The notes beneath the pieces were generated by a model. That model saw only the letters and a program-made list of their open reading frames with translations. It did not search any database and had not been told where the DNA came from. Source: Candidatus Nomurabacteria bacterium RIFCSPLOWO2_12_FULL_46_14 (lineage in GTDB: Bacteria > Patescibacteriota > Minisyncoccia > Phycocordibacterales > UBA9973). From it: a stretch of 32,681 nucleotides of DNA. This document shows, one piece after another, positions 5,220 through 32,681 of this stretch; the stretch's first letter is position 1; each line of letters opens with the position of its first letter. The translations under genes were made by a program, and so were the position numbers. The stretch lies in assembly GCA_001786225.1 (NCBI GenBank), contig MFVV01000033.1, forward strand, positions 3,336 to 36,016, in the 5' to 3' direction.

Positions 5220-5234
5220 ATTACCACAACATTA

Positions 5235-5243: not shown

Positions 5244-5250
5244 GATGGCA

Positions 5251-18145: not shown

Positions 18146-18197
18146 ATGTTTATATCTTTCTTTATTTAAATTATTAATACTATTAGGGCAGTTAATA

Positions 18198-18206
18198 AGT
18201 GGATAA
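18198..18206 (-). promoter_or_regulatory. DnaA-box-like 9-mer TTATCCACT (8/9) in the dnaA-dnaN spacer, next to an AT-only tract at 18229..18250
   Basis: The plus strand reads AGTGGATAA. The 112-bp spacer is very AT-rich. Confidence 0.35.
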
Positions 18207-18257
18207 GATGTTTTTGTCTTGGCGGGTAATATTTAAAAAAATATTTTTAACTGAATA

Positions 18258-19604
18258 TCACCTGAACATTATTCTTATTTGGTCTAACTCCTGAGAGAGC
18301 TGGGGGTCGGTTTTTATTTCTTCTTTTATTTTGAGATAGGAATGGATGACGGTGGTATGGTCCTTGCCGCCTAGTTTTTGACCGATTAGGGGGTAAGAAA
18401 CATTAAAGTCCTCCCGCAGGAGATACATTACCACCTGCCTGGCTCGGACAATTTCTTTCCGCCTGGTTTTTTCGTATATTGAGTTTTCGTCCAGATTGTA
18501 ATGCTCACTGACCACCTTGACCACGTCCTTAATGGCCACGGTTTTCTTGGGTTTGATGTTGTTTTTAAGCAGATTTTTCACTTCCACGGCGGTTAGGGGC
18601 TTGTTCTTTAGGCGATATTGGCAGAGAATCGTGTTCAAGCTTCCCTCCAGCTCCCTAATGTTGCCGAAAATAGCTGTAGCCACATACTCCATTATTTCTG
18701 GAGGCAGTTTGAGACCCAACTCCTCGGCTTTTACCTTAAGGATGGCCAGCCGGGATTCGTACTCCGGCTCAATAATGTCCACTATCATTCCCGCCGCGAA
18801 ACGGGATTTCAGCCGGTCGGCAAGCTCCGGTATGTGGTTGGGATGCTTGTCGGAGGAAAATATTATCTGCTTGTTGCTTTCGTGAAAAGTGTTGAAGGTG
18901 TGGAAAAGCTCTTCCTGGATTTTCTCCATTTTGCCGATGAACTGGATGTCGTCGATAATCAGGAGGTCGTACTTCCGATATTTTTCCTTGAAGGAATTAG
19001 CCTTGTTGCCCTGCAGGGAGTTTATGAAATCAGTGGCAAATTTTTCCAAAGTCATATAATGGACCTTTTTCTCCGGGAACTTGTCTTTAATGGAGTTGCC
19101 AATGGCCTGGATTAGGTGGGTTTTACCCAAGCCTGTGCCGCCATAGACAAAAAACGGATTATATTTTGTCCCCGGGCTCTCAATAATGGCTTGAGAGGCG
19201 GCGTAGGCCAGTTCATTGAAGCCTCCGACGATGAAAGAGTCAAAGCGATAGCGGGAGTTGAGATTGTCTTCCGGATTTATGTAAAGGTCCCGGAGTGGCA
19301 GTTCCTTATTGCTACCGTAAACCGCGCCGGCGGCCGATATCTCCTGCTTTTCCGATTCTATTTTGGTAATGACGTATTCCACCGCCCGCATATTTTCATA
19401 GGCGTCGGCAATGGTCTTGGTGATAAGTTTGTGGTATTTGTTTTTCAGCCAGTCCCGGACAAATTCATTGGGTACGGCAATGTAAATTATGCCCGTTTCT
19501 TCCCTTAGAATGGAGGTATTCCGGAACCAGGTGCTGAAATTCGCTTTTGAAACCCCGGTTTCTATCTCCGTGAGGCAGTTTTGCCAAAGTTCTTTTGTGT
19601 CCAT
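18258..19604 (-). CDS. dnaA: chromosomal replication initiator DnaA
   Basis: Walker A GGTGLGKTHL, Walker B LLIIDDIQF, and sensor/box VII SDKHPNHIPELADRLKSRF. C-terminal DNA-binding domain: RRKEIVRARQVVMYLLRE...IGQKLGGKDHTTVIHS. Confidence 0.95.
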   Translation of the reverse strand: MDTKELWQNCLTEIETGVSKANFSTWFRNTSILREETGIIYIAVPNEFVRDWLKNKYHKLITKTIADAYENMRAVEYVITKIESEKQEISAAGAVYGSNKELPLRDLYINPEDNLNSRYRFDSFIVGGFNELAYAASQAIIESPGTKYNPFFVYGGTGLGKTHLIQAIGNSIKDKFPEKKVHYMTLEKFATDFINSLQGNKANSFKEKYRKYDLLIIDDIQFIGKMEKIQEELFHTFNTFHESNKQIIFSSDKHPNHIPELADRLKSRFAAGMIVDIIEPEYESRLAILKVKAEELGLKLPPEIMEYVATAIFGNIRELEGSLNTILCQYRLKNKPLTAVEVKNLLKNNIKPKKTVAIKDVVKVVSEHYNLDENSIYEKTRRKEIVRARQVVMYLLREDFNVSYPLIGQKLGGKDHTTVIHSYLKIKEEIKTDPQLSQELDQIRIMFR

Positions 19605-19664
19605 AATGATTCATCATTATACTCCCCAAGCGCGAATAGCAAGCAATTTTTAACTTACTAACTC

Positions 19665-19673
19665 TGTTGATAA
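19665..19673 (-). promoter_or_regulatory. DnaA-box-like 9-mer (plus strand TGTTGATAA, 8/9 to TGTGGATAA) in the dnaA/rpmH divergent spacer
   Basis: Sequence match only. A weaker 7/9 site, GGTGGAAAA, follows at 19676..19684. Confidence 0.3.
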
Positions 19674-19731
19674 TCGGTGGAAAAAAATACAAGCAGTTGC
19701 CTAAAGCCTGATTTTAGTATAAAATCATTAT

Positions 19732-19866
19732 ATGTCCCAAACATACCAGCCTAAAAAAAGAAAGCGAGCTAAGACCCACGGATTTTTAAAGAGACGAAAG
19801 AGTAAAACTGGCCAGCGGACGCTCCAGCGCCGCAGGAGAAAAGGCAGAGCCAGGCTCGCTGTTTAA
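19732..19866 (+). CDS. rpmH: 50S ribosomal protein L34 (not in the ORF track, 44 aa)
   Basis: [44 protein letters not shown] is the canonical L34 sequence pattern. It sits in the canonical position upstream of rnpA and divergent from dnaA. Confidence 0.95.
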
Positions 19867-19872
19867 TGTTTC

Positions 19873-19942
19873 GCAGGTTTCAGGTTTTTTCTCCCTCCTC
19901 GCACATTTACCGCCTTGTCGTTCGAAAAAACCTGAAACCTGC
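19873..19942 (+). terminator. 19-bp perfect hairpin (GCAGGTTTCAGGTTTTTTC / GAAAAAACCTGAAACCTGC) with a 32-nt GC-richer loop, between rpmH and rnpA
   Basis: The arms are 19873..19891 and 19924..19942, followed by TTTCAC. It could be an attenuator or terminator between rpmH and rnpA, or a small palindromic element. Confidence 0.5.
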
Positions 19943-19958
19943 TTTCACTTATAACTAA

Positions 19959-20282
19959 ATGATTCCAAAGAAAAACAGGGTCAACCGCAAAGAAATTGAT
20001 GAAATTTTTAGGCGCGGACGCTCGCTATATTCCCCGAGCTTAACTCTTAGGTTTGTTTGGAATAAAGAAAAACTGCCCCCCAAGATTTCCTTCATCACGC
20101 CTAAAACGTTATTCCCTAAAGCTGTTAAACGCAACTTGCTCCGCCGGCGCGGCTATGCCGCGCTCCATCCCAACTTGAGCCGATTCCCTGTGGGCATATC
20201 GGGAGTTTTTATTTTCCAAAGACAGCCGAAATCCGTTTCCGCTCTAGAGGAAGAAATAGAAATAATTCTGGGGAAACTATGA
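19959..20282 (+). CDS. rnpA: ribonuclease P protein component
   Basis: 107 aa, basic. KKNRVNRKEIDEIFRRGRSLYSPSLTLRF and KAVKRNLLRRR (the RNR-like motif). Canonical rpmH-rnpA-yidD-yidC order. Confidence 0.9.
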   Translation: MIPKKNRVNRKEIDEIFRRGRSLYSPSLTLRFVWNKEKLPPKISFITPKTLFPKAVKRNLLRRRGYAALHPNLSRFPVGISGVFIFQRQPKSVSALEEEIEIILGKL

Positions 20283-20488
20283 AAAAAGCCTTAATTAATT
20301 TAATTGTCTTTTACCAAAAAAGAATTAGCGTATTTAAGAAAAAAAGCTGTGTTTTTTACCCTACTTGCTCCGAATATGCCAAAGAGGCGATTCGGAAATA
20401 TGGCGCCCTCCGGGGCGCTTGGCTCTCTCTACGCAGAATCCTGCGCTGTCATCCCTGGCAAAAAAATCATATTGACCCGGTTAAATAA
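20279..20488 (+). CDS. yidD: membrane protein insertion efficiency factor YidD
   Basis: YQKRIS....CVFYPTCSEYAKEAIRKYGALRGAWLSLRRILRCHPW is the YidD signature. It has an ATGA overlap with rnpA. Confidence 0.9.
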   Translation: MKKALINLIVFYQKRISVFKKKSCVFYPTCSEYAKEAIRKYGALRGAWLSLRRILRCHPWQKNHIDPVK

Positions 20489-20584
20489 AGAAAAATAATC
20501 GAGAAAAAGCGACGGGTGGGGGCGTGCCGTTCCGAGCGAAGCGAGGAATGGGGTTAAGGAGTTTTTTCCCGATTATTTTTCTTT
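20487..20584 (+). terminator. 98-nt imperfect hairpin element: AT-only stem (about 23 bp) enclosing a 50-nt GC-rich loop with its own inner hairpin
   Basis: AAAGAAAAATAATCG (20487..20501) pairs with CGATTATTTTTCTTT (20570..20584), extended by GAAAAAGC/GTTTTTTC. The inner hairpin is CCGTTCC...GGAATGG (20528..20552). It lies between yidD and yidC. Confidence 0.45.
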
Positions 20585-20620
20585 ATTGAAATTATGGGTG
20601 AATTCATATAGAATGAAAAA

Positions 20621-21364
20621 ATGCTTGGAAATTTATGGGATATTTTTTTATACGAGCCCTTGGTAAACCTCCTAGCCTTCCTGGTATACATTATACCCGG
20701 AGGAGACATCGGTATTGCCATCATTCTGCTTACCGTGCTGGTGAAAGCCGCTCTTTTCCCCCTATCTCAGCGCTCTATTCTAGGCCAGGCCAAAATGGCT
20801 CTCCTGGCTCCAGAGCTAAACAAAATAAAGGCAAGCGGCAAGAGTAAGGAAGAACAGGCTAAAGACACCTTCGAGCTTTACAAAAAACATAAAGCCAACC
20901 CTTTTTCCGGCTGTTTACTCATGCTGATTCAGATACCGATAATATTCGCCCTGTATTATGTTTTTTTAAGAGGGATAAACTTCGACAGCGGAATTTTGTA
21001 TTCCTTTATGCCGGTTCCAGAGAAAGTGAACATGATTTTTCTCGGTCTGGTCGATGTCAGCCAGAAAAGTCTTGCCTTGGCGATACTGGCCGGGATTTCC
21101 CAATACTTCCAAGCGCACTTTATGCCCAAGCCCACTCCTCCCACCTCTGGCCAGGGCACCTTCGCAGACAGTTTCTCGAAAAGCATACATATTCAGATGA
21201 AGTATTTTTTCCCTTTCCTGATAGCCTTCTTTGCTTACACTCTCTCCGGCGCTATAGCTCTGTACTGGATAGCCAACAATGTATTCGCCACTCTGCAACA
21301 GCTTTATACCAACAAAAGGAAACATTTAATGTTGGCCAATAAATATGCCGATGAACAAAAATGA
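20621..21364 (+). CDS. yidC: membrane protein insertase YidC (short, Gram-positive/Oxa1-like form)
   Basis: 247 aa with five TM helices. Motifs: AIILLTVLVKAALFPLS, ELYKKHKANPFSGCLLMLIQIPIIFALY and ALYWIANNVFATLQQ. TAGAAT lies 6 nt upstream of the ATG. Confidence 0.9.
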   Translation: MLGNLWDIFLYEPLVNLLAFLVYIIPGGDIGIAIILLTVLVKAALFPLSQRSILGQAKMALLAPELNKIKASGKSKEEQAKDTFELYKKHKANPFSGCLLMLIQIPIIFALYYVFLRGINFDSGILYSFMPVPEKVNMIFLGLVDVSQKSLALAILAGISQYFQAHFMPKPTPPTSGQGTFADSFSKSIHIQMKYFFPFLIAFFAYTLSGAIALYWIANNVFATLQQLYTNKRKHLMLANKYADEQK

Positions 21365-21836
21365 GATTATTAATTTAATAAGAGAACTTATTGAGAGAAC
21401 TACCGTAGGCGTAGAGGCTATAAGCGTGGCTGAGAATGATGTTGCCAAAGGCAAAGACAGCGAAGAAACAATTTGGATTCAGGCAGAAGTCCGGGAGCCT
21501 TATTTTTTCCTGGACCGCGGCGGGGAGGGGCTGTCGGCCTTAAATCATGTAGTTCGCAAAATTGTTGAAGCCAGGGTGGAAGCGGAGACCCCCTTTAACA
21601 TTATGGTTGACATCAACGGCTTTCAGAGAAAGAAAATAGAAAATCTCAAAGCCGTGGCGCATATGATGGCGGAGCGCGCCCGATATTTCAAATCCAATAT
21701 TGAAATTGATCCCATGTCCGCTTTTGAGCGGCGGATAATCCACGAGTTTTTGTCCGATGCCGCCGACCTTAAAACCGAGTCAGCCGGAGAGGGGCCTAAC
21801 CGCCGAGTGGTTATTAAGTATATCGGAGGAATATAA
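21345..21836 (+). CDS. jag: Jag/KhpB-type RNA-binding protein (KH plus R3H domains)
   Basis: R3H motif FERRIIHEFL. It ends GEGPNRRVVIKY. It sits in the canonical position after yidC and overlaps the yidC stop by 20 nt. Confidence 0.8.
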   Translation: MPMNKNEIINLIRELIERTTVGVEAISVAENDVAKGKDSEETIWIQAEVREPYFFLDRGGEGLSALNHVVRKIVEARVEAETPFNIMVDINGFQRKKIENLKAVAHMMAERARYFKSNIEIDPMSAFERRIIHEFLSDAADLKTESAGEGPNRRVVIKYIGGI

Positions 21837-21910
21837 TAAAACAAAAAAATGTCTTATAAAGGCGTACGCAGGCTGACGAGCCGGCCTTTAGAAGATATTT
21901 TTTTGTTTTA
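21837..21910. terminator. 27-bp AT-rich hairpin with a 20-nt GC-rich loop between convergent genes (bidirectional terminator candidate)
   Basis: 21837..21863 pairs with 21884..21910, with one G.U and one mismatch. The arms touch the stop codons of both jag and the 21908 gene. Confidence 0.55.
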
Positions 21911-23230
21911 TTCTAACTCCAGTTTCCAGAGATAAGAATCTTTTTTGTTGACCAAAAATAGCAGATTCTCGCCGTTCCCCAAGGCAAGCTTTACGCCATC
22001 AATTTTTGCCACCAAACTCAAATCGGCTATCAGACTGGTGTTGCCGGTTTCCACCTCCACCTTCCAGATTTCGTCCGAAAAAGAAACCTCTCCCTGGTAC
22101 CAGGTGTCGGGATAAGTGAAGCCGGTGGCTGACTTCGGCGCCGCGCAATACAGAATTTCACTCCCTCGACCCCAAACGCATTTCTCCGCCAGGGTTTGAA
22201 TGCCTAAAGCGGTGGATTCCCGGCTTTCAATTCTATAGACATTAAGCCTCAGGTTGCTGTTGCTCCAAAGAATCATTTTGCCGTCCGGACTTGCAAGAGT
22301 GGTCAGGCCGTTTATGTCGCCGAAAATCCGGCTGAAGTTTTTTGTGTCGGGGTTGAGCGCGTAAACATGGCCCGCCGTGGCGTAAGAGGGCTTGGTGGCG
22401 AGGGTAATCATCTTGGCGCTTGGCCAATATGATGTCCATTCGGTAAAGGGGGAATCAAACACTACGGTTTTCTTGCCGGTTTTGAGGTCCATTACTGTGC
22501 CGACTACTCCATCTCCGGCCGGAGTCAGATAAAATATTTTCGTGGCGTCAGGCGAGAGGCTCAAATCCGAAATATTCTCCGACAAGAAGCTCCCCCGGAC
22601 CTCGTTTTTTTCCAAAGAATCTCCACCCAAAACTTCTTTAGGCAGATTGCCCAAAAATGTTTGGATAGTCTTCTCGTCGCTCTTGAGATAGCGCATAACA
22701 ACCACCTCGCCCTTCAAGCCAAAATGCGCTTCGTAAACTTTCGGGATAAGGGTATCGGTGAACTTGCGCTCCGCTATTTGGTCCACAAACGTCTGGTAAA
22801 TGTTGCCGGTGGCCCGGTCCACATATCTTAAAGCGGGGGCGAATTCCGTGGGGAGCGAAATTGGGTTTTTGGGTAGAGAAGGAGTAGCGCCCCCTTCCTC
22901 TCCTTGGGAGAGGGCCGGGGTGAGGTTAATTTCTTTGTATCTTTCTTTAAGGAATAGAGTATAACCGGCTACCGGAACGTTTGAGACTCTAGTTAACTTT
23001 TTAGCCGCCTCGGATAGTTCGTCGGGTTCGTAGCCGGATATATCTTCCGGCGGGGTCGTTGCGGTGGGTTTAGACGAGCTTTGGCCGAAAGGATTGAAGT
23101 CGGAGAAGAAATTGGTGCCGCCCTCATTTGGAATAGTCGTGGCTGGCTCCCGGAAATACAAGTAGGCGAAAAATCCAGCCGTCAGAATGACCAGAATGAT
23201 AACTATTAAAATCAAATTTCTTCGGGACAT
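21908..23230 (-). CDS. membrane-anchored beta-propeller-like protein (TolB/PD40-like repeats), last gene of the secretion operon
   Basis: The ATG at 23230 was chosen because the ORF-track start at 23254 is a TTG. TM anchor LILIVIILVILTAGFFAYLYF. Repeated LSPDATKIFYLTP / ASPDGKMILWSNS motifs are typical of PD40-type blades. Confidence 0.65.
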   Translation of the reverse strand: MSRRNLILIVIILVILTAGFFAYLYFREPATTIPNEGGTNFFSDFNPFGQSSSKPTATTPPEDISGYEPDELSEAAKKLTRVSNVPVAGYTLFLKERYKEINLTPALSQGEEGGATPSLPKNPISLPTEFAPALRYVDRATGNIYQTFVDQIAERKFTDTLIPKVYEAHFGLKGEVVVMRYLKSDEKTIQTFLGNLPKEVLGGDSLEKNEVRGSFLSENISDLSLSPDATKIFYLTPAGDGVVGTVMDLKTGKKTVVFDSPFTEWTSYWPSAKMITLATKPSYATAGHVYALNPDTKNFSRIFGDINGLTTLASPDGKMILWSNSNLRLNVYRIESRESTALGIQTLAEKCVWGRGSEILYCAAPKSATGFTYPDTWYQGEVSFSDEIWKVEVETGNTSLIADLSLVAKIDGVKLALGNGENLLFLVNKKDSYLWKLELE

Positions 23231-23235
23231 GAATT

Positions 23236-24201
23236 TTATGATTGCACATGCCAATGGTCGCCTTCGTCAAAAAACAGCATACCGTCTTTCCTATACCAGT
23301 TTTCCTTCAACTTCTCGCCGCTTCGGATATACTGATTTAGCGCGGGAGTCCCGGTATTTCGTAAATCCACCGTGGGACTTCCTGGCCGGTGGGAAGTATT
23401 GCCGGAGGGGCCGCCATGTAGCCAGAACTCTGTGCCGCCCGTTAAGGTTAACTCACAAGTCGGACAATTGCTACGAATCATGTTAATATATGCCAAACTA
23501 AGACCCCTGGTGGAAGTGCAGTTACTGTCCCCAATATTTCGGCATTCATTATTTTTTTTGCCTATAGGTAAAGGAACTTGTGCTTGGCCAGAGGCCACAG
23601 CCCAATCATCCCCGCGCTTCATGCCGTTTTTGTATCTGCCTTGGGCGTCAGTGGTTTGAGGAATATCGTCGTCTATGACAACTTCAATTGTTTGCTTTTT
23701 TATTTTAACATCCGTTTCCAAGAGGTCGGGATTGATGGTAAAGAGTATGGTGTAAGCTCCGAGAGCGAGCAATAGGCCGAAAATCGCGTTGCGGATCCGC
23801 TCCTTGGCGTGCTCCTTGCTGGAGATAAGCTCACTGGTCATATATTCCAAGCCTCCGGCCACAATCATAACCATAGCGAGCACCGCACAGACGCCAATGA
23901 ATATTTTTATCATTAGGTTTAAGTATCGGCCTATGGAGTTAGGATTGGCCGGGTCATCTGCCGGGTTGAACCTTATGTATTCCCCTCCCACACAGTTCGG
24001 GTCCGCGGTGTCGGTGCACGGCAAGGGCTCCAGAAAATTATACCTTCGGTCTTGGCACGGAGGATTTAACTCATTTCCAAGCGGCCCGAAACGGCAATCT
24101 TCGTTCGGATCTTCTGCCGAGGCGCTGACCCCGAAGATGGGTGTAAATATCAAAACGCACAAGAGAAATGGAAATATATATTTTAATAATTTATTTTTCA
24201 T
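23236..24201 (-). CDS. T4SS-pilin-like (VirB2/TrbC-type two-TM module) protein fused to a C-terminal LAS/M15-like zinc peptidase domain
   Basis: Signal peptide ending VSASA, then a Cys-rich stretch. The pilin-like core is IGVCAVLAMVMIVAGGLEYMTS...AKERIRNAIFGLLLALGAYTILF. The C-terminal domain has SHRPGSPTVDL (an H-x7-D motif) and a terminal DHWHV (HxH), as in Hedgehog/DD-peptidase-fold cell-wall hydrolases. The ATG at 24201 shares 1 nt with the upstream TGA (TGATG). Confidence 0.6.
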   Translation of the reverse strand: MKNKLLKYIFPFLLCVLIFTPIFGVSASAEDPNEDCRFGPLGNELNPPCQDRRYNFLEPLPCTDTADPNCVGGEYIRFNPADDPANPNSIGRYLNLMIKIFIGVCAVLAMVMIVAGGLEYMTSELISSKEHAKERIRNAIFGLLLALGAYTILFTINPDLLETDVKIKKQTIEVVIDDDIPQTTDAQGRYKNGMKRGDDWAVASGQAQVPLPIGKKNNECRNIGDSNCTSTRGLSLAYINMIRSNCPTCELTLTGGTEFWLHGGPSGNTSHRPGSPTVDLRNTGTPALNQYIRSGEKLKENWYRKDGMLFFDEGDHWHVQS

Positions 24202-25187
24202 CAAAATTGAATAAGCATTTCTTTAGTAATCGGCCGGACGATTTGCTCCCGGTTGTCTATGGTAAGCGAAAGGCGGGACACACCCGAAGAATTTTCTGCC
24301 GCTTTAAGCGGGATAACATTTTTGCGATAGTCTGCGCTCCCCGCCCTCTGGTTATTTATAGACCAGCCAAAGGTCAGTTCTGGCCGGCGGATATCTCGGG
24401 GTGAAATGAAATACGGCGCCGCCAGGATTGTTGCCTCTTCTAGAATGGCGTAATTGTCCGGGAGCGCTCCATCCCAGAGCACACCCAAAGCGCTGTCTAT
24501 TTTATAAAACAATATCTTGGGCGTAAACACGCTTACTCCGACACTGCCTTCGATAGAATATTTCTGGTCGGTGGTGGAAGCGACCACCGATACCGCGCTT
24601 GTGTCTTCCAAATAATCATCCACATAGGTGAAAGAATTCTTGCCATAGCCTGAATCCGCCGCCTGATTGGTGTAATTCTTTTTCCAGGTATAAATCATAT
24701 TTTTGGGATTGACTATCGCGTTCCCCGCCTTTATCTCCGGCATAGCCACAATCTTGATTCCACTCCCAGACATAGGCAAGGCCTTGCCTTTGTAAAAAGG
24801 CGGGACATAAGAGTCGGTAGCTTGCCAGAGGAGGGTCATAATCGCGGGCCGGATGGCCACCCTCTTTTCTATTTGTCCGTCCGGCAGGTAAATCCTCGCT
24901 TCTATCTTGGTTTCAGTGTTAGCGGCTTTGGCCGTGACGGAGAAAGATTTTTTGCCTATTCCGGAGAGAGTCGTTTTGCCGTCCACTAGCCAGTCTATTT
25001 TTACAGTATCCAGATTAGATAAGAAGCTCCCAAGAGTAATGGTTACGTTCTCATACGGTGCTGGGTTCGACGGGGCTACATCTATGAAGATGCTAGTGGA
25101 ATCCACAGCCAGCGCCACCCCACCCCATGCCGTGGCAGACATAATAAAGGCGCCCAGAATAAAAAGTTTCAATCGCATATTGTTCAT
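24201..25187 (-). CDS. secreted beta-rich protein of unknown family
   Basis: 328 aa. Signal/TM LKLFILGAFIMSATAWGGVALA. The rest has alternating beta-strand-like composition in about three Ig-sized modules. No motif recognised. Confidence 0.6.
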   Translation of the reverse strand: MNNMRLKLFILGAFIMSATAWGGVALAVDSTSIFIDVAPSNPAPYENVTITLGSFLSNLDTVKIDWLVDGKTTLSGIGKKSFSVTAKAANTETKIEARIYLPDGQIEKRVAIRPAIMTLLWQATDSYVPPFYKGKALPMSGSGIKIVAMPEIKAGNAIVNPKNMIYTWKKNYTNQAADSGYGKNSFTYVDDYLEDTSAVSVVASTTDQKYSIEGSVGVSVFTPKILFYKIDSALGVLWDGALPDNYAILEEATILAAPYFISPRDIRRPELTFGWSINNQRAGSADYRKNVIPLKAAENSSGVSRLSLTIDNREQIVRPITKEMLIQF

Positions 25188-25203
25188 ATTGTATCATTTG
25201 CTA

Positions 25204-25231
25204 GCGCCTAAAGCCTAGCGCCTAACGCCTA
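25204..25231. repeat. four tandem heptamers NCGCCTA (minus strand TAGGCGN)
   Basis: gcgccta aagccta gcgccta acgccta, with a degenerate fifth unit at 25197..25203. The last unit supplies the VirB4 TAG stop. Confidence 0.8.
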
Positions 25232-27076
25232 TTTCCCCGCCGCTTCCAATTCCGCCTTGGCTTTTCTGATGGATAAAATCTGGGATGGGTCGGAAGTGAT
25301 TATCTGGTCTTCGGTGTAAGAAGCGATTACTTTGATGGCCACGTGCTTGAGCCCCGCGAAAAATATGCCTTCACCCAAGCCGGACTCCAGCAGAAGATAT
25401 TTTTCTTCATCCGTCAGGTGGAAGGTCTCCTTAACCACGTCAATGGCGGTGGGCGACTGGCCCAAGAGTAGGACAATAGAAGAATTGTGGACTATGGGCT
25501 CGCCGTATTCCGACTTCATGAAGTCTCCCGTGTCTTGGGTAATGGTGGCGAGCCCCAGATAATATTTGCGGCCGCGCTTGGCCATAGAGTAAAGAAAGGA
25601 GGCGGTATCCTCGGACTTCATCATCCACCAGGCCTCGTCTATCACCAAGAGGCGCTTCTTCAGGTTTTTGCGGATGGCGTTCCAGATATAGTTCATTACT
25701 ATGTACATAGCTACCGGTTTCAATTCGTCTTCCATATCCCGGACGGAAAAGACGATGAATTTTTTATTGATGTCCACATTGGACGGCTTGTTGAGAAAAG
25801 TTGACCAAGTGCCACGGGTGTACTTTTTCAGCCGTTCTACCACCGAATCACTGCCGTCCATGCCCGCCAGCACCATCTCAAAGTCGGAGAGCAACGGCGG
25901 TTCAATGTTCCCGAAATCCGAATTCGGGGTTATATCTTTGATGGCGTAGGTTTCGGTAATCGCTCGGTCCACCATGGTGTCTTCTTCCGGAGTGAGCCCC
26001 CCGAGCATCAGGCGGAAAAGTTTCACCAGGTTGATGGTGTTGGAACGGAGAACGTCTTCCGCCGTTTCGTCTTCTCGGGGGAGCGGCAGGTCAAAAGGAT
26101 TAATGTGGTGGTCGGAGGAGAGGGAGATGTTGAAGTACCGCCCGCCCACCGCCTCCGCCAGATATTCGTATTCCCGCTCCGGGTCTATGACGATGACATC
26201 CACGTCAAACATCAAAGACCTTAAAATTTCTAATTTTGTGGCATAGGATTTTCCTGAACCAGATTTGGCAAATGTTACGGAGTTATAATTTTCCAGGGAA
26301 AATCTGTCAAAAATGACTAAGCTGGAATTATGCCGGTTGACCCCGTAGAGTATCCCCTTGTCCGAAGTCAGGTCAAAGGAAATGAAAGGGAAAATGCTAG
26401 AGAGCGGCTCGGAGTTAAGTTTCTGGTGAATGCCGAGCAAGTCACTGCCGATGGGGATGACGCTCTTGAAACCCTCCTCTTGCTGGAAGAGAGCGGGTTT
26501 AATGTAGATTAGTTTTGATTCCAAAATAGATTTTATCTCGTTTTCAATTTTAAAAAGCTCCATCTCATTGTCTGCGTAGACGGTGATGTAGACGCCGACG
26601 TCAAACATCTTCTCCTGGGCCTGCATTAGGCTGTCGCGGAGGCCCTCTAGGTCTTGATAGGCAGTGTCTAGCATGGGGTCGCGCACCATGCCTCTGGTCT
26701 CCCGCACATTTATCTGGCTTTGGACTTCGGCTACTTTCTTTTGAAATTGGCGCAGCGCGAGCGAGGTGTCTATGGGATGGATAAAAATGGAAACATCAAA
26801 AATTTTATCCAGATTGATGATGGGCGAGAACCAGTTGTCGGAGAGGAATCTGGGGTAGGAAATTATGAAAAAGGTGCGGGCAATTTTCTCCCCCAGGTTT
26901 ATGGCCTTGGGCTCTATCTTGAGGGCCGAGGGCGCGACCACATCCTGGAGTTCCAGATTGGCCGCCTCGTAAATATCCTCCGGCAAGACGGCCACGGTGG
27001 AGGCCTTGAGCCCTGTTCCCGCGCGTCCCATTATGCTCCCGCCATTTTTCCCTAAAATTTTATCTAAGAATGACAT
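25229..27076 (-). CDS. virB4: VirB4/TrbE/PrgJ-family type IV secretion ATPase
   Basis: 615 aa. Walker A FAKSGSGKSYATK. Walker B KKRLLVIDEAWWMM. Downstream GRKYYLGLATITQ. The N-terminal domain IARTFFIISYPRFLSDNWFSPII is of the Gram-positive VirB4 type. Confidence 0.85.
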   Translation of the reverse strand: MSFLDKILGKNGGSIMGRAGTGLKASTVAVLPEDIYEAANLELQDVVAPSALKIEPKAINLGEKIARTFFIISYPRFLSDNWFSPIINLDKIFDVSIFIHPIDTSLALRQFQKKVAEVQSQINVRETRGMVRDPMLDTAYQDLEGLRDSLMQAQEKMFDVGVYITVYADNEMELFKIENEIKSILESKLIYIKPALFQQEEGFKSVIPIGSDLLGIHQKLNSEPLSSIFPFISFDLTSDKGILYGVNRHNSSLVIFDRFSLENYNSVTFAKSGSGKSYATKLEILRSLMFDVDVIVIDPEREYEYLAEAVGGRYFNISLSSDHHINPFDLPLPREDETAEDVLRSNTINLVKLFRLMLGGLTPEEDTMVDRAITETYAIKDITPNSDFGNIEPPLLSDFEMVLAGMDGSDSVVERLKKYTRGTWSTFLNKPSNVDINKKFIVFSVRDMEDELKPVAMYIVMNYIWNAIRKNLKKRLLVIDEAWWMMKSEDTASFLYSMAKRGRKYYLGLATITQDTGDFMKSEYGEPIVHNSSIVLLLGQSPTAIDVVKETFHLTDEEKYLLLESGLGEGIFFAGLKHVAIKVIASYTEDQIITSDPSQILSIRKAKAELEAAGK

Positions 27077-27082
27077 GGGGTT

Positions 27083-27129
27083 AGTTATAAAGTTATAAAG
27101 TAGAAAGTTATAAAGTTCATAAAGTTTGG
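27083..27129. repeat. six tandem 7-9-nt units, consensus AGTTATAA (minus strand TTATAACT, containing the -10-like TATAAC)
   Basis: agttataa agttataa agtagaa agttataa agttcataa agtttgg. It spans the stop of the 27117 gene and ends 7 nt before the virB4 ATG. Confidence 0.8.
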
Positions 27130-27776
27130 CTGGAACTTTGTTCCAGCTGTATCTTCCCTTCTAATTCTCCGGGGTTGAAAACTTTGTAAAAAACCTCCAC
27201 TACCGCCTCCGTGTCCAGCTGTTTAGAATTGATGCCGCAACGAGAGAGCCCTTGCTGGATGACGCTGACTCTCTGCTCCAGTTGGGACCTTTTTTCTTCA
27301 AAATTCAATTGCTCCGCCGCCAGTCTCTCCTTCTTGTTTTTTCGGCTGAAAATATTGTCCAGAATATTACTTCCACCTCCGAGTCGGGTGTGAGTATAGG
27401 GCACGACGATAAAAAAGCTTTTGGTCATAATGTTGACGCTCTCCGTAAAACTGCGGATGAACTCCATATATTCCGCCGTCTGAAGCTTGAGCAGGGGTTC
27501 GCTCTGGACCTTCATCCGGTTCTCCAGGAGGAGGAGATACGGCCGGATATCCAGCCGCCGGGACTGCACGGATATCTGAATGGGGAAATCCAAAGTGTTC
27601 AGAAAGCTCTGAAATTGCAAAATCGTGGCGTTCTGCTCGTCACCCGATTTCAGCGATAGATTAACGGAATTGGCGAGAACAATCGCCCGGAGCTCGCCGT
27701 CTTTGAGCGCGATTATACCATCGCGGACTTCCTTGATGGGGACGAACTCTTGAGTTGCTTTTGCGTTTAAGACCAT
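27117..27776 (-). CDS. 219-aa cytoplasmic protein resembling a VirB4 N-terminal domain without any NTPase motif (hypothetical)
   Basis: The ATG at 27776 lies 4 nt after the upstream stop; the ORF-track start at 27821 would overlap. QEFVPIKEVRDGIIALKDGELRAIVLANSVNLSLKSGDEQNATILQFQSFLNTLDFPIQISVQS follows the pattern seen at VirB4 N-termini. No Walker motifs. Confidence 0.55.
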   Translation of the reverse strand: MVLNAKATQEFVPIKEVRDGIIALKDGELRAIVLANSVNLSLKSGDEQNATILQFQSFLNTLDFPIQISVQSRRLDIRPYLLLLENRMKVQSEPLLKLQTAEYMEFIRSFTESVNIMTKSFFIVVPYTHTRLGGGSNILDNIFSRKNKKERLAAEQLNFEEKRSQLEQRVSVIQQGLSRCGINSKQLDTEAVVEVFYKVFNPGELEGKIQLEQSSSQTL

Positions 27777-27780
27777 AAAA

Positions 27781-28215
27781 TTATTTATTATCAGTTTTTT
27801 GTTTCTGTAAATCCAGTACATCCAAACTCCAGGCCAGGTCGCGCAACCGGCTTTGGCCCAGTCTCATCGGACTCTCGCTTAGGGCCGCAATTTTAGACAT
27901 TTCCGCCTGGGTAGCCACCTGTTTCATTTTTTTAACCTTTCTTCTCTGCCAGATGTATAATTTTTTGCCCAAGAAATATTTAAAGCCGGCCTCCAGCATA
28001 TTAATAAAGGGCTTGTTGTTCGGGCGGTAAAAGGTCAGAGCCAGAGTCAAGCCAGCAATGATGGCTATCGGCAGTATGCCCAACATCAACCCCAGTAATT
28101 TATAGAGGGTGAAGGACATCCCCGCTCCGCCGGCCAGATAAGCGAATTGCCGGAAGGTAAACGGCCCAAAAATCTTGTCTTCTATGTCCAAAAATTGTGG
28201 AACCTTGAATTGCAT
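27781..28215 (-). CDS. PrgI-family (VirB3-like) type IV secretion membrane protein
   Basis: MQFKVPQFLDIEDKIFGPFTFRQFAYLAGGAGMSFTLY, followed by a second TM helix. This is the characteristic PrgI/VirB3-like N-terminus (VPxFxxxExKIxGxxTxRQ). Confidence 0.7.
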   Translation of the reverse strand: MQFKVPQFLDIEDKIFGPFTFRQFAYLAGGAGMSFTLYKLLGLMLGILPIAIIAGLTLALTFYRPNNKPFINMLEAGFKYFLGKKLYIWQRRKVKKMKQVATQAEMSKIAALSESPMRLGQSRLRDLAWSLDVLDLQKQKTDNK

Positions 28216-28226
28216 CCCGTTAAAGC

Positions 28227-28499
28227 TTAATTAGAATCTTCTTTTAAAATCCCCTGCGCGATATATTTCTTTATAAGCGACTGATATGGCATATCTATTT
28301 CATTTGCACGCTCTTTTACTCTGGCCAATATATGTGACGGCAGGCGCAGAGAAATAGGCTGGGAGGAGGGTTTTAGAGTCGGAAATGAAATTCTCTTAAA
28401 ATCGGAAGGTTCGAAGTTCTTGGCAAGATTAAACTTTCCCCAGAAATCCCGTTCTTTGTTTTCGTCTTTAAACTTTTGAATTTTTATTTTTTTCCTCAT
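28227..28499 (-). CDS. brnA: BrnA-like antitoxin (CopG/RHH-type C-terminus)
   Basis: 90 aa. ISLRLPSHILARVKERANEIDMPYQSLIKKYI is the BrnA pattern. It overlaps the upstream toxin gene by 32 nt. Confidence 0.7.
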   Translation of the reverse strand: MRKKIKIQKFKDENKERDFWGKFNLAKNFEPSDFKRISFPTLKPSSQPISLRLPSHILARVKERANEIDMPYQSLIKKYIAQGILKEDSN

Positions 28500-28806
28500 A
28501 TAATTTATATTCTTTTTGGTTTAGGTCTCTAGCCGAGATGATTCTTACTTTATCTTTCCGAATCGTAAACACTAAGAATAAGAGCCGCTTCTTCTTCGTT
28601 CGACCAATCAAAAGATAGCGTTTTTCTTTTCCGGAATGAAGAGCATCCTTCAATATTTTTTTATTATAATCAAAGAAAACTTCTTCACATTCCTCATCTT
28701 TTACTTTATGCTTCTGATTTTTGCCTTTATTCCCGGAATCCCACTCAAAGCCCGTAAGTTTTTCGAAGTTTTTCCCTGTTTCTATTGTAGCGTCAGACAT
28801 ATACAT
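28468..28806 (-). CDS. brnT: BrnT-family (DUF497) ribonuclease toxin
   Basis: FEWDSGNKGKNQKHKVKDEECEEVFFD...HSGKEKRYLLIGRT...VRIISARDLNQKEYKLY matches DUF497 (feWD..K...N..KH.v...E...vF ... E.R ... iRiISAR). The ORF-track start at 28812 is a TTG; ATGs occur at 28806 and 28800. Confidence 0.75.
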   Translation of the reverse strand: MYMSDATIETGKNFEKLTGFEWDSGNKGKNQKHKVKDEECEEVFFDYNKKILKDALHSGKEKRYLLIGRTKKKRLLFLVFTIRKDKVRIISARDLNQKEYKLYEEKNKNSKV

Positions 28807-28822
28807 TGTCAAGCAGTTTACA

Positions 28823-29734
28823 TTATTCTATTGGTTCTCGGTAAGGATCGACTTTTGGTTTTTCTTTCGTGCTAGGCGGTAGCGGCGCGCTGGTGGGGGT
28901 CAGATTTTCCAATGTGTGTTCGGTTTTCTTAGTCTCCGTTTTTGTCGGCTCGGTGAATTTTCTGGCAAGCTCCGGGTAAACTGGTCCGGCCAACAATTCT
29001 TGGTCGTCCAAGACCGGGTCGGTCAAAACCTCTATCCCGGCTCGCTTTAAGACTTCATGCTCTTCTCGTTCTAAATTCACAGGTTTATCCAAGTTATAGC
29101 GAATGAGCATTTTTGCTCGGATATCCTTAAGTATTTTCTCGTTCACTTCGCCAGCTAATGCTGTTACTTTTTCTTCCGGCAAATCCAGACTTGCTTTAAG
29201 CACACCTTCAAACTTGTGTGGCGGAATAATATCCAGTATGACTTGAGTCATGGCTGTTTCCAATTCTCCCAATTGCGCCGTGGTCAGTTTGTGTGTTGTG
29301 GCAATAGCATACAATTTAGCTTGAAAATTTGAAGCTAGAATGGCGTTTTGCACCTCCGGAGCTAATTTTCCAAAGCGTTCATCCAGACCGGTTTCCACTT
29401 CCTCTGTGTCTGGTGTATTATAAACTTTCTTCAATTTTTCTTTTATACCACTTAGTATTTCACGGTCAATATCTGTTATAATATTATCTATTCTCAAGCC
29501 GTTTATTTTTGAATGATTTATCAATCCATCTGCAAGTTCATCGGGATGAACCAAACCAAGCACTACCAAAACCACTTCTCTTTGAAGTATCTCAAGTTGT
29601 TCTGCGTTTAGTCCATTTTTCACCCCCATACTTGTTATTTTTTCCCCCAATTTAGGGTCAGCAACAATTTTCCTTATTTCAATGGGTAATTTTCTAATCT
29701 GTCTTTTAATTATTTCTTCTACTTCTGGGTCCAT
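28823..29734 (-). CDS. hypothetical protein built from two copies of an about 100-aa helical domain plus a Pro-rich tail
   Basis: Residues about 15-100 (LPIEIRKIVADPKLGEKI...AEQLEILQREVVLVVLGLVHPDELADGL...IDREILSGIKEKL) align with residues about 125-212 (LAPEVQNAILASNFQAKL...TAQLGELETAMTQVILDIIPPHKFEGVL...VNEKILKDIRAKM). The tail ends KVDPYREPIE. Confidence 0.65.
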   Translation of the reverse strand: MDPEVEEIIKRQIRKLPIEIRKIVADPKLGEKITSMGVKNGLNAEQLEILQREVVLVVLGLVHPDELADGLINHSKINGLRIDNIITDIDREILSGIKEKLKKVYNTPDTEEVETGLDERFGKLAPEVQNAILASNFQAKLYAIATTHKLTTAQLGELETAMTQVILDIIPPHKFEGVLKASLDLPEEKVTALAGEVNEKILKDIRAKMLIRYNLDKPVNLEREEHEVLKRAGIEVLTDPVLDDQELLAGPVYPELARKFTEPTKTETKKTEHTLENLTPTSAPLPPSTKEKPKVDPYREPIE

Positions 29735-29735
29735 A

Positions 29736-32048
29736 CTATTTTACTTTTTCTAATAAGTTCTCAAATTCTTCATTTTTTATAAAGTCGCTATTTCTAAGTC
29801 TTATTGCAAGCAATTCTCCCCTTACTGCCATCATATTCCACATCGGTTTAACCATGGGTTGTGCCCATTTATTCACAGCAAGCCACTGGGCCCAAGATCT
29901 CCCGTATTTTTTATAAAGTTTTATAAACCAACTATTATTTGTTGCCGCCCATAATCTCGCCGCATGAGTTTTTTGATTATTAACCCCATACAACACTTCT
30001 GCTACCCAACATGGTGCTCCACCTGCTGGTGCTCCACCTGCTGGTGCTCCACCTGCTGGTGCTCCACCTGCTGGTGCTCCACCCGTTGCCGCGAAAGCCG
30101 CCGCCGCTTGCTGTAATTGTTTCGCTTTATTTATTGATGCCTCTCTTACTCTGGTAGCGGCTATTCTGTTTGTCATAAATTTTCCCCCACCTTCCAATTG
30201 GCGAGCATAATTTTCTCTTCTTCCCAGATTTATTTTGTCAATCTGTTGTTGTATCATATCATTATATGCTTGATTGGCAGGAGTTTTAGCACGGAACACC
30301 AAACCTCTTTCTATTCTCTCCTTTTCACTTAATTCTAAACTATTAGCAATTTTTTCTTGCTCTTCAGAAAATTCTTTTCTTTGTTTTGCAAAACCACCCT
30401 CTTTGACCTTTCCAACCATAGCAGCACCACCTGCCAATCCAGTCATACCCAAAGCTTTATCGACTCCAGGCGCCCCCCTAGCATCGAAACTTTTTCCTCC
30501 CACCCATCTTGTTGCTTGCAATGCCCCCGTCCCAATTCTGCTTTTCTCTGCCCATTTTTTGAATTTTTGGTTTTCTCCAAGATTTGTGGCAACCCTCCCA
30601 ACAGTCTGTCTTCCAGCAAATGCCGCTGCACCCAGGCCTGCACCTACAGCCAGCCCACCAGCTAGTTTTACTCCTTTCATTGCCCAGGTACCTAATTCTC
30701 CAGACCCCTTCTTGGCGTAAGAAGAGGCTTTCTGTAAAAGAATCAAAAGTATGAGCGCTGGTAGCATAGTAAATACTAAAATTTCAATCGGGTGAGCCGA
30801 CGGGTGAGCGCTTATTACTTTACTATTAAATAGATCAGTCTGAGCAATCATAAAAATGAAATACATAAAAAACATAAAAATTGTCGCCATGAATGATACA
30901 GAAAGCAGGCGGTGCGACCACTCATCCCAGCCGATATACTTCACTTTTTTAAGCGCAGGCATGGCGAAAGACATAAAAGCAAAGGGGGAAAATATTATCA
31001 AAATCCAAAGTTCCACCAAGCGCACCACAAATGCCAAGCCCGCCATGAAAAATGCGTAAATGGCATACCAAAGGATCAACCCCACGGTAAGTATTATTGC
31101 CATTTTCATAGCTGCTGGTATCTCTTTTCTGAAACCAGAAAAAAGTCGCTGGGCTACGTAAGCGCCAGCGCCTATTCCAGCGCCTACCGGTCCGCCAATT
31201 AGGAAGCCACCGCCAGTGTATATAGTAAAACCCTTCAGGCTTACCCCACCCATATGCGTCCTTTCCTTTACCTTATCGAAGAAATCTTGGGTCATAAGTT
31301 TAGTAACATCAAAATTACCAACCAACCCTCCAGAAATATCCCTTTCTCCCTCGTGGGTTGCGTTATACGATGGACCCTCTTTATTGGTTGGATCTTTAGC
31401 TTTAACTTCCATTTTATTGTAAAAAATAAGCGCTAAAACATTGGACGAATCAATGACAATTTTTGTGGCAAACATGCTGAAATTGATGAGCAGAGCCATA
31501 ATGATGACCCAGATAATCATTTTTTTGCCATCATGGCCGGCCAGGCCCAGAATGATTTTAATGGCTATATAAAGCAGAATCAGGATGAAGAAAATGTTAG
31601 ACAAGTCGCGAGTTATCCGCCATGCCTGAGGCAAAAAATCTGAAGAAGAGTAAACGCTAGCCTGTAGGCCTAAATGAATCGCCACGTTAAAGAACTTTGC
31701 CACTGAGGTCAATAGGAAACTGGGAATAGAATAAAATAGCCAGTAAGTTATTTTTACCGCACAAGCGTCAAAATCTCCTTTAATAAGGGCAAGACAACTT
31801 CCTCCTACTTCTTCCTCAAAATCTGCGGGAGTATCCTCTACCGTTACTGTAGCTCCGGGTTCGCACTTAAGGCTAGTCCCTTCGCGACCGCTAACACCCG
31901 CGACATATGCACCATTCACCTTTTCACCATCGACTGTAATGGTACATGCCTGCCCCACCTGATACGCGCTCGCCTTCTCTGTCGGTCCGAAAAATCCGGT
32001 TCCAACGAGGACTACGAGTATTAAAATGTAAGGTAAAAATTTTCGCAT
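29736..32048 (-). CDS. 770-aa polytopic membrane protein, VirB6/TrbL-like by topology and context
   Basis: Signal/TM, then a Cys-containing extracytoplasmic segment, then about 10 further TM helices with Gly-rich stretches ([28 protein letters not shown]). The cytoplasmic tail has a coiled-coil region, a (GGAPA)x5 repeat and a Trp-rich C-terminal module beginning CWVAEVLYG. Only 1-nt gaps separate it from both neighbours. Confidence 0.6.
30013..30087. repeat. 15-bp tandem repeat GGTGCTCCACCTGCT, four perfect copies plus one variant, in-frame inside the VirB6-like gene
   Basis: Units at 30013, 30028, 30043 and 30058 are identical. The unit at 30073 differs at 3 positions. It encodes (GGAPA)5. 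Confidence 0.9.
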
Positions 32049-32049
32049 A

Positions 32050-32681
32050 TTATTGCTGTATATTCACGGTTATCGTATCCGTAGCATTGCCGCCGGTTTT
32101 ATCCGCCTTCTGCCAGCAGGTTAGAGAGAAAACCTTCGGACTTTCCGGAGAAGGATAGTATGGATGCGAGGGAGGTATGGTGTTGTTGATGCCAGAAGTC
32201 TCAACTCCGCCCGCGAAAGGCGAAGAGAATTCGCAGATGGTGGCATTGGTTGAGGTCCAGGCATAAGTAAGAGTGGAACCGCTGGGGACGGTTACGCTCG
32301 GGCCATCCAAGCCATTAATTTTCAGGTCCACACTAGCCGGGAGATTCTCCGGTGGTGTTCCACCTGGCGGGGTCTCCGTATTGTCCTCCTCCTCTTCGCA
32401 GCCTTCCAGTTTTTCGCCAAAATATTCAAAATCACACTGGTCATCTTCCGGCGGTTGATTCACGCTACTCTTTAAGGCTGTTAATCCTTTGTCAAAAAAG
32501 TGGTTGAGCAACGCGTCGAATATTGCCGCGATGTTGTTGCCAAGTGCCGCGCCCAATTCGGCCTGGGAGAATTTGGAGCCAAGCGCTCGGGTGATTTGGC
32601 TGGCGGCCACATAACCCGGTGTGGTGTTTACAAGTCCTCCCGGGCAAGTGTTTTCTTCCGCCCACACCGCGTAGGCCGCCG
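32050..32681 (-). CDS. secreted protein with a C-terminal Ig-like domain (partial; the 5' end lies beyond the window)
   Basis: The frame stays open to the window edge, and the ORF-track M at 32667 is a GTG inside the open frame. An acidic linker CEEEEDNTETPPGGTPPE is followed by a beta-sandwich-like tail LKINGLDGPSVTVPSGSTLTYAWTSTNATIC...FSLTCW. The TAA stop lies 1 nt before the next ATG. Confidence 0.6.
   Translation of the reverse strand, partial: AAYAVWAEENTCPGGLVNTTPGYVAASQITRALGSKFSQAELGAALGNNIAAIFDALLNHFFDKGLTALKSSVNQPPEDDQCDFEYFGEKLEGCEEEEDNTETPPGGTPPENLPASVDLKINGLDGPSVTVPSGSTLTYAWTSTNATICEFSSPFAGGVETSGINNTIPPSHPYYPSPESPKVFSLTCWQKADKTGGNATDTITVNIQQ

Follow-up and report, generated by a model that had tools for sequence, protein, structure and literature searches.

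The type IV secretion systems (T4SSs) that most closely resemble the one described here come from the Patescibacteria themselves. A survey of 3,035 genomes from this phylum (Quinonero-Coronel et al. 2025, Microb Genom, PMC12102498) describes in its main text a monophyletic clade of VirB4 ATPases nested within the MPF-FATA group, for which TrsD is the commonest partner and near which PrgI/VirB3, VirB6 and VirB2-like pilins are also encoded. According to the same main text, these systems contain almost no relaxases, homologues of the type IV coupling protein (T4CP) are common but rarely adjacent to virB4, the systems of Paceibacteria lie near dnaA, dnaN, rnpA, rpmH and ksgA, and those of the class ABY1 sit with comF, recG and radA. 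In Saccharibacteria, a T4SS with pilins and without a relaxase and a coupling protein (SEML1_0006-0019) is essential for epibiotic growth (Wang et al. 2023, Cell, PMC10633639), and a 2025 review counts the Patescibacteria systems as an established subtype of T4SS (PMC12857230). Few machines have been shown to be essential to the epibiotic way of life in this very large uncultured radiation, and that these systems are among them gives them their interest. Here we analyse a 32,681-nucleotide stretch of contig MFVV01000033.1 from Candidatus Nomurabacteria bacterium RIFCSPLOWO2_12_FULL_46_14 (the window, meaning this whole stretch of DNA), which carries a T4SS-like gene cluster at positions 21908-32681 of its minus strand. 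A preliminary description of this cluster, made from its sequence, had concluded that no characterised system matches its composition. Given the 2025 survey, as presented in its main text, and the 2023 study of the Saccharibacteria version, that claim is outdated, and the cluster is another member of the already described Patescibacteria T4SSs and not a new machine. Very probably, it is the Nomurabacteria (Paceibacteria) version of that clade, a chromosomal and vertically inherited descendant of an MPF-FATA conjugation system minus its DNA-processing module.

Measured against the clade as portrayed in the survey's main text, the locus has the same repertoire: a VirB4 of probable FATA ancestry, a TrsD-like protein, PrgI/VirB3, a polytopic protein in the VirB6 position and a pilin encoded by virB4. 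It likewise has no relaxase and no adjacent T4CP, its setting is likewise chromosomal, by dnaA, dnaN, rnpA, rpmH and ksgA, and nothing essential differs. The motor is the natural starting point for this comparison. The 615-residue product encoded at 25229-27076 (-) is a VirB4-family ATPase equivalent to the C-terminal two-thirds of a canonical VirB4; it matches the CD1110 family model NF045971 of NCBIfam with 373 bits (cutoff 325) over profile positions 182-733 of 752, gives further matches to P-loop_TraG (1.8e-25) and to the VirB4 structure PDB 4ag5 (1.1e-39), and contains the GSGKS (Walker A) and LLVIDEAW (Walker B) motifs by which it had initially been named VirB4. The 219-residue product encoded at 27117-27776 (-) had been described as belonging to no nameable family, a label that does not stand: it is a TrsD/TraC-like protein, the phylum's commonest VirB4 partner. 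It matches positions 100-289 of VirB4_plasma (3.4e-10) and positions 2-121 of the CD1110 VirB4 profile (7.4e-6), its match to TrsD NF041427 (6.6e-6) falls under the NCBIfam cutoff, and an identical product is annotated with the TraC-like family PF26593. Because the larger protein covers positions 182-733 of the VirB4 profile, the smaller one matches N-terminal positions, and a full-length one-piece VirB4 from Clostridium aligns colinearly over both open reading frames (ORFs), VirB4 is split here into two genes, a detached N-terminal domain of the TrsD type and the 615-residue ATPase. The third member of the module, at 27781-28215 (-), is a 144-residue PrgI-family small membrane protein with a single strong hydrophobic segment (residues 40-58), and its VirB3-like label was borne out by a match to PF12666 of 3.8e-9 and 37.4 bits, above the cutoff of 27. 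Among plasmid-encoded proteins, the nearest relatives of the ATPase are VirB4s of Firmicutes and Actinobacteria (29-36% identity), and its best named families are the Firmicutes CD1110 and the Mycoplasma VirB4 families.

The cluster comprises eleven co-directional ORFs in a tightly packed operon, in the order first gene, polytopic protein, helical protein, brnT, brnA, PrgI, TrsD, VirB4, immunoglobulin (Ig)-like protein, pilin protein and propeller protein. The coordinates and junction geometry in the preliminary description were recovered, except that two spacers are longer than it had implied. The first gene joins the 770-codon polytopic gene through TAA-T-ATG at 32050/32048, the latter joins the 303-codon helical gene through TAG-T-ATG at 29736/29734, the 328-codon Ig gene and the pilin gene overlap in TGATG at 24203-24199, prgI and trsD are 4 nt apart (the 219-residue protein starts at 27776), and the pilin gene is separated from the last gene by 5 nt if the start at 23230 is assumed, the one chosen in the public annotation of an identical contig. 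The only long spacers are those between trsD and virB4 (40 nt; 27083-27126) and between virB4 and the Ig gene (41 nt; 25201-25231). From this geometry, the genes are likely to be co-transcribed. Both long spacers consist of short tandem repeats, AGTTATAA in 5.5 copies and CTAACGC in 4.4 copies, respectively.

To compare the locus with its relatives, VirB4 homologues were collected with one genome per species; at least 592 were confirmed among at least 599 pattern matches, the best 80 were used for locus comparison, and every window protein was searched by tblastn against these 80 loci. All 80 come from metagenome-assembled genomes (MAGs) of the Nomurabacteria/Paceibacteria type, with VirB4 proteins 73-88% identical to that of the window. 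The gene order (first gene, polytopic, helical, PrgI, TrsD, VirB4, Ig, pilin, propeller) is kept across these species-level genomes, and the cluster is neither sporadic nor plausibly a chance arrangement. The core components have near-constant lengths, as illustrated by the TrsD-like protein, present in all 80 loci at about 213-218 residues, and by PrgI, present in 77 at the same position and about 141 residues. On the 3' side, the relatives have the convergent genes jag-yidC-yidD-rnpA followed by dnaA-dnaN, and dnaA lies no more than 10 kb from the cluster in 52 of the 56 loci with enough flanking sequence. On the upstream side, for which a VirD4, relaxase or integrase gene would have pointed to a mobile element, they have uvrD, ksgA and two unnamed genes, and none of these three; a VirD4 query also found no match in the window or within 10 kb on either side of the 80 loci. 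Median identities are 83% for VirB4, 79% for DnaA and 67% for DnaN, and the identities of the T4SS components co-vary with that of DnaA (Spearman 0.69-0.87). Given the synteny, a divergence that tracks DnaA and an upstream region free of mobile-element genes, we conclude from these comparisons that the cluster is vertically inherited and strongly constrained, and not an integrated conjugative element (ICE). The locus is a clean and complete Paceibacteria example, with a VirB4 that is no quicker to diverge than DnaA in the species compared, and it defines the accessory proteins conserved in the lineage, namely the large first-gene product, a helical protein with a DPY tail, a triple-Ig protein and a propeller protein. 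Two departures from the fixed order were seen, both rare local inversions: prgI lies on the strand opposite virB4 in locus L052 (8849-9900, together with trsD) and in locus L061 (at about 8734). Separately, many of the MAG records, including L002, L018, L019 and others, are titled "uncultured Candidatus Saccharibacteria"; their VirB4 proteins are 80-86% identical and their loci fully syntenic with those of Nomurabacteria/Paceibacteria, and the titles seem generic or mistaken.

Within the window itself, the preliminary description's negative statements were confirmed. Relaxase, VirD4 and integrase families have no match among the scanned ORFs, and the cluster has no flanking tRNA gene, the sole one in the window being a tRNA-Lys gene 20 kb away. 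A search for oriT-like repeats returned, at the border of the cluster, a single inverted repeat of any strength, a convergent-terminator hairpin discussed below. The cluster does abut an origin-proximal gene block, being convergent with jag-yidC-yidD-rnpA-rpmH, beyond which lie dnaA and dnaN. The proposal of a T4SS-like machine that is chromosomal, lacks a relaxase and is no ICE, in a bacterium of the candidate phyla radiation (Parcubacteria type), is supported, and the origin-proximal locus that houses it is conserved. Taken as a whole, the earlier interpretation is partly supported: it was right except for the claim of novelty and two of the component labels.

The protein in the VirB6 position is one of the cases in which an earlier label survives in part. 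It is encoded at 29736-32048 (-) and is a 770-residue polytopic membrane protein with a signal peptide, about six or seven transmembrane (TM) helices between residues ~100 and ~440, and a long hydrophilic C-terminal region. This region includes a stretch of (GGAPA)n encoded by a perfect 15-nt tandem repeat of 4.8 copies (30012-30083), which could be a length-variable linker. The VirB6-like label is favoured by where the gene lies, by the topology of the protein and by its homology to membrane proteins of ICEs. The gene occupies the place of the VirB6/CD1112 gene in the Clostridium plasmid pCDC3875, and 12 of 50 orthologues match NF045848 (the MMCAP2_0566 conjugal transfer protein; best 6.3e-9) while seven of the 50 match NF045889 (the Mbov_0396 ICE TM protein) across model positions 5-315 of 322, the matches to these families ranging from 6e-9 to 3e-4 and spanning almost all of the model. 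What did not stand is the expected TrbL/VirB6 profile, which was matched by a single one of the 50 orthologues (E 0.0017). An hhalign comparison with the Clostridium CD1112 VirB6 returned a probability of 1%, and the profile of the family had no match in the PDB. By way of its orthologues, the protein thus appears to belong with the Mbov_0396/MMCAP2_0566 membrane proteins of Mycoplasma ICEs.

This connection to mycoplasmas extends beyond one protein. The pilin, the polytopic protein and VirB4, or their orthologues, have their best or only named matches in the Mbov_0395, Mbov_0396/MMCAP2_0566 and Mbov_0397 families, which bear consecutive locus tags, though the matches fall under the curated cutoffs and are to be read as distant homology and not as membership. 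Mycoplasma ICEs are mobile elements of wall-less hosts and carry a transposase and TraG. A second useful reference point is the Clostridium botulinum plasmid pCDC3875, which has a system of the CD1110/CD1112 type with a colinear order of VirB6-like protein, PrgI, an intervening gene, VirB4, another intervening gene and a wall hydrolase. The plasmid differs from the window in having VirD4 (CD1115), a MOBP relaxase, a one-piece VirB4 of 797 residues, a VirB6 of 260 residues and a separate 957-residue SLT hydrolase, and in having no pilin; its VirB4 is ~32% identical to that of the window.

The gene at 23236-24201 (-) encodes a 321-residue pilin protein in which a signal peptide and a Cys-rich segment precede a VirB2-like helical hairpin (residues ~90-157), with a linker leading on to a 145-residue C-terminal domain. 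Its matches to T4SS_pilin PF18895 (6.8e-5, just under the cutoff) and to the Mbov_0395 pilin-like family NF045849 (6e-6) are reinforced by its orthologues, 59 of 69 of which match PF18895 (best 4.7e-10), and an AlphaFold2 (AF2) model resolves the hairpin into helices 90-123 and 127-157 and gives the C-domain a predicted local distance difference test score (pLDDT) of 90-97. The C-domain (23236-23712, -) is the more variable part of the protein family. The C-termini of the 69 orthologues fall into at least 11 unrelated clusters, among them NlpC/P60 (12 orthologues), VanY (7), YkuD (5), Amidase_5 (4), M15_4 (3) and SLT (3), and loci with a VirB4 85-86% identical to that of the window already include several C-domain types. 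The type found in the window is carried by 330 representative clusters and is C-terminal, or close to it, in nearly all of the 150 matches listed; its invariant residues are C221, C229, C247, W261, H263, H272, D280, E314, H317, W318 and H319. This C-domain has no match in Pfam, and none in the PDB by phmmer; alignments of it (13 and 220 sequences) compared by hhalign with the other C-domain clusters gave probabilities of 2.3% or less; and a Foldseek search of PDB and BFVD returned no C-domain match at E<=0.001 despite the pLDDT above 90, with the full-length protein as query and hairpin matches dominating the output. There is a motif-level likeness to VanY-like zinc peptidases (LAS/M15), for which SxHxxGxAxD and ExxH are the metal-binding and catalytic motifs, with ITGGTExWLH...SHxPGSxTVDL...ExxHWH in the window against NITGGGYRS...NHNNGKAFDL...EPWHW in a VanY-type orthologue, unaccompanied by a profile or fold match. 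Of the pilin-peptidase fusion proposed in the preliminary description, the pilin module is sustained; peptidoglycan-active domains do occupy the orthologous slot in relatives, but a peptidase in the window's own C-domain is not supported, and the term peptidase can be applied to it only putatively.

Wall-degrading modules close to VirB4 have precedents in the multidomain VirB1-like hydrolases of Gram-positive T4SSs, PrgK of pCF10 and TraG of pIP501, which, in the account given by the main text of the survey, are membrane-anchored and extracytoplasmic and carry modular peptidoglycan-degrading domains (SLT, CHAP/NlpC-P60, LytM) (PMC12102498). Like them, the orthologues of the window pilin carry NlpC/P60, VanY, M15_4, YkuD, Amidase_5 or SLT domains. 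Unlike them, the anchor here is a VirB2-like hairpin and not a simple TM helix, and the C-domain in the window shows no detectable relation to those enzyme families. One possibility, which we hold to be doubtful enough to be advanced only tentatively, is that the conserved VirB2-like hairpin serves to anchor or deliver exchangeable extracytoplasmic "warheads", in the manner of polymorphic toxins. If this were true, the T4SS would present or fire host-wall-specific enzymes at the site of contact, and the type of C-domain would track the chemistry of the host wall. Alternatively, the C-domain may be a housekeeping analogue of VirB1 that opens the symbiont's own wall. The pilin-enzyme fusion offers a tractable handle on T4SS function, and the warhead idea is one reading of it worth following up. 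The main text of the survey makes no mention of a pilin fused to polymorphic wall-enzyme domains, of conserved triple-Ig and propeller proteins, of a BrnTA insertion, or of a link between the polytopic protein and the Mbov_0396/MMCAP2_0566 families.

How might such a machine work? If it is the Nomurabacteria version of the Patescibacteria T4SS, its motor would be the split VirB4 ATPase, consisting of the TrsD-like N-terminal domain and the 615-residue P-loop part, and this motor would dock at the membrane through PrgI/VirB3 and the 770-residue protein in the VirB6 position. It would act on the Sec-exported VirB2-like pilin, the C-terminus of which bears an extracytoplasmic enzyme-like domain, and the Sec-targeted large first-gene product, triple-Ig protein and propeller protein would build or decorate a wall-spanning, host-facing part. 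The outcome would be a pilin-based structure and/or a channel across the monoderm envelope that is used in host-cell contact. Contact-dependent exchange with the host, whether by protein export, through a pilus-like conduit or as uptake, seems the most likely use; conjugation is probably not, because no relaxase and coupling protein are adjacent. More broadly, the lack of DNA-processing genes and the genetics of Saccharibacteria together speak against conjugation, and also against transformation being what makes the system essential. The assembly, the substrate and the role in host interaction suggested here are extrapolated from the essential Saccharibacteria system. That system, in Candidatus Southlakia epibionticum ML1, shares with the window its likeness to Gram-positive-type systems, its pilins and the lack of a recognisable relaxase or coupling protein (PMC10633639), and its low locus-tag numbers suggest a location near the annotated start of the genome. 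It differs in being the sole member with genetic evidence of essentiality, and in having about six separate small pilins and separate peptidase and lysozyme genes downstream of virB4 in place of the single pilin-enzyme-like fusion seen here.

Several considerations weigh against this interpretation and set its limits. Essentiality and a host role would be carried over from a different class, Saccharimonadia, the operon being known in its own lineage from its genes. Its probable placement in the published VirB4 clade draws on similarity and taxonomy. A relaxase or coupling protein could be encoded elsewhere in the genome, of which 32.7 kb are visible. The 770-residue protein has no Pfam or NCBIfam match of its own, which leaves the VirB6 assignment without direct profile support; it is best called a VirB6-position protein and not a demonstrated VirB6, on grounds of position, topology and the ICE-family homology of its orthologues. 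A peptidase identity for the pilin C-domain found no support, no hydrolase fold having emerged from Pfam, PDB, hhalign or Foldseek. Finally, a VirB8-like bitopic protein with an NTF2 fold was not found, the only modelled bitopic candidate, the 328-residue protein, being an Ig array and the 440-residue protein resembling a propeller. The last point does not exclude membership in the Patescibacteria clade, because VirB8 is rare outside ABY1 in the published survey, to judge by its main text (PMC12102498).

Of the competing explanations, the one that survives best is that the cluster moves no cargo between cells and instead builds a surface fibre or anchor, in which the pilin-enzyme fusion would combine with the Ig and propeller proteins to bring about adhesion and remodel the wall locally. 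A VirB2-like pilin accompanied by three or four Sec-targeted surface proteins and no coupling protein would suit such a structure, and VirB4 serves as a pilus-assembly ATPase in Gram-negative systems, as stated in the main text of the survey (PMC12102498). However, related systems use the polytopic protein in the VirB6 position and PrgI as parts of a channel, and a 145-residue globular domain on the C-terminus of the pilin may clash with helical packing of the VirB2 type. Nothing in the present data separates a fibre alone from a fibre plus a channel, and we regard the fibre-only version as unlikely on balance.

A less probable explanation is that the cluster is a DNA-uptake (competence) machine, comparable to the ComB T4SS of Helicobacter pylori or the archaeal Ced system, that imports DNA or nucleotides for a bacterium unable to synthesise them. 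Such a role would sit well with the lack of a relaxase or T4CP nearby, with the comF/recG/radA setting of the ABY1 systems noted in the survey's main text (PMC12102498) and with the lack of nucleotide synthesis in Patescibacteria (PMC10633639). The VirB4 of the window also has a weak partial match to CedB (1.7e-8), but this lies far under the cutoff and covers the P-loop region, the ATPase core, only. No competence genes adjoin the cluster. In Southlakia, moreover, deletion of comEC abolishes competence and not viability, whereas the T4SS is essential, so that the essential role of the system there is not transformation (PMC12857230). We therefore consider uptake as the function of this locus to be improbable.

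The weakest alternative is that of a standard integrated conjugative or mobilisable element, with its relaxase, coupling protein and integrase encoded outside the window. It is largely refuted and can be given hardly any credence: the window and three other assemblies do end inside the first gene, leaving their own upstream regions unseen, the VirB4 family is conjugative in Firmicutes, and a toxin-antitoxin pair is embedded in the cluster, but the upstream genes of the relatives, the lack of VirD4-like matches around the 80 loci, the locus fixed by dnaA with its DnaA-like divergence, and the lack of a flanking tRNA or integrase all speak against it, and the toxin-antitoxin pair, being absent from the relatives, looks like an add-on and not like part of a shared mobile backbone.

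The toxin-antitoxin pair itself had been correctly recognised in the preliminary description and proves to be of type II, BrnTA. The ribonuclease toxin gene brnT (28468-28812, -; PF04365, 4.4e-21) and the CopG-family antitoxin gene brnA (28227-28499, -; PF12441, 1.1e-20), both with matches above cutoff, lie toxin first between the helical-protein gene and prgI and overlap by 32 nt. A near-consensus sigma-70-like promoter, TTGACA-17-TACAAT, is located at brnT (28812-28784), and the BrnTA region has the lowest G+C content of the cluster. The pair is also present in an identical JGI contig. Since none of the 80 related loci contains a homologue of BrnT or BrnA, the pair is a recent, lineage-specific insertion in an otherwise conserved operon.

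The remaining products of the operon belong to the conserved accessory set of the lineage. The first gene is represented by its 3' part, 209 codons at 32050-32681 (-) that run off the window and encode a part of a large secreted protein. Its orthologues, encoded by the first gene of the cluster in the relatives, have 586-1094 residues, with an N-terminal domain that is conserved and has no name and with Ig-like C-termini that vary; T2SS-T3SS_pil_N was matched by 4 of 23 of them, and the family has no Pfam, NCBIfam or PDB assignment, Pfam searches with the orthologues and profile-versus-PDB searches giving chance-level matches only. An exact-protein look-up found three independent public assemblies with an identical 770-residue protein, all of which end 130-580 nt upstream of its gene, within the first gene. 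That these assemblies and the window share a break there suggests strain-level variability or repeats in the first gene.

The helical protein (303 residues; 28823-29734, -) is cytoplasmic, without a TM segment, and belongs to an unnamed family. An N-terminal helical module of ~100 residues is weakly duplicated (internal repeat E 0.025) and is followed by a low-complexity linker and a C-terminal DPY(RE) tail, in which D296, P297 and Y298 show no or almost no variation and which could be a docking or recognition motif. Orthologues of 157-438 residues were found in 50 of the 80 loci; there was no Pfam, NCBIfam or PDB match to the protein, and searches of Pfam with its orthologues and of the PDB with their profile stayed at chance level.

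The 328-residue membrane-anchored protein (24201-25187, -), present in 73 of the 80 loci at ~328 residues, was modelled by AF2 (pLDDT 89.3) as a helix (residues 5-20) followed by three tandem beta-sandwich domains of the Ig/fibronectin type III (FnIII)-like kind. It has 780 homologues, all hypothetical and without a Pfam family, and Foldseek with the model brought up nothing more specific than tandem-Ig arrays and adhesins, no VirB8 or NTF2 fold being among the 50 matches listed. The protein had been tried as a VirB8 candidate, which the three Ig-like domains of the model rule out. The last gene of the operon (21908-23230, -) encodes a 440-residue single-pass membrane protein with a TM segment at residues 14-32, a low-complexity linker and a propeller-like ectodomain, found in 69 of the 80 loci at ~448 residues. 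The ectodomain is probably a TolB-like beta-propeller, as suggested by weak matches of the protein to the TolB propeller model TIGR02800 (E 0.0014; 17.7 bits against a cutoff of 343) and of the family profile to TolB in PDB 7mx5 (E 0.029).

The origin-proximal housekeeping block next to the cluster (17045-21836, mixed strands) consists of dnaN (17045-18145, -), dnaA (18258-19604, -), rpmH (19732-19866, +), rnpA, yidD, yidC and jag/R3H (21345-21836, +). The stop codons of jag and of the last T4SS gene, which are convergent, face each other across a strong 32-nt inverted repeat (21832-21915; 91% complementary, 20-nt loop), a hairpin that is probably a bidirectional terminator. The origin of replication was not located: DnaA-box matches in the window (12, against 6.7 expected) are not significantly enriched and none are clustered, and GC skew over 32 kb is uninformative for origin position. 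Two further strong intergenic inverted repeats were seen within the block, a perfect 19-nt repeat between rpmH and rnpA (19873-19942) and a 28-nt repeat between yidD and yidC (20481-20590). Elsewhere in the window, 15 kb from the T4SS, a 625-residue PilB-type T2SSE ATPase with an MshEN domain is encoded at 5071-6948 (+); it is part of a type IV pilus machinery and not the VirB11 of the T4SS cluster. At 7630-8701 (+), a 228-residue antitoxin-like protein with a helix-turn-helix and a SocA/Panacea domain is encoded by a gene overlapping a 131-residue ORF of no family, and the two may form a second toxin-antitoxin module.

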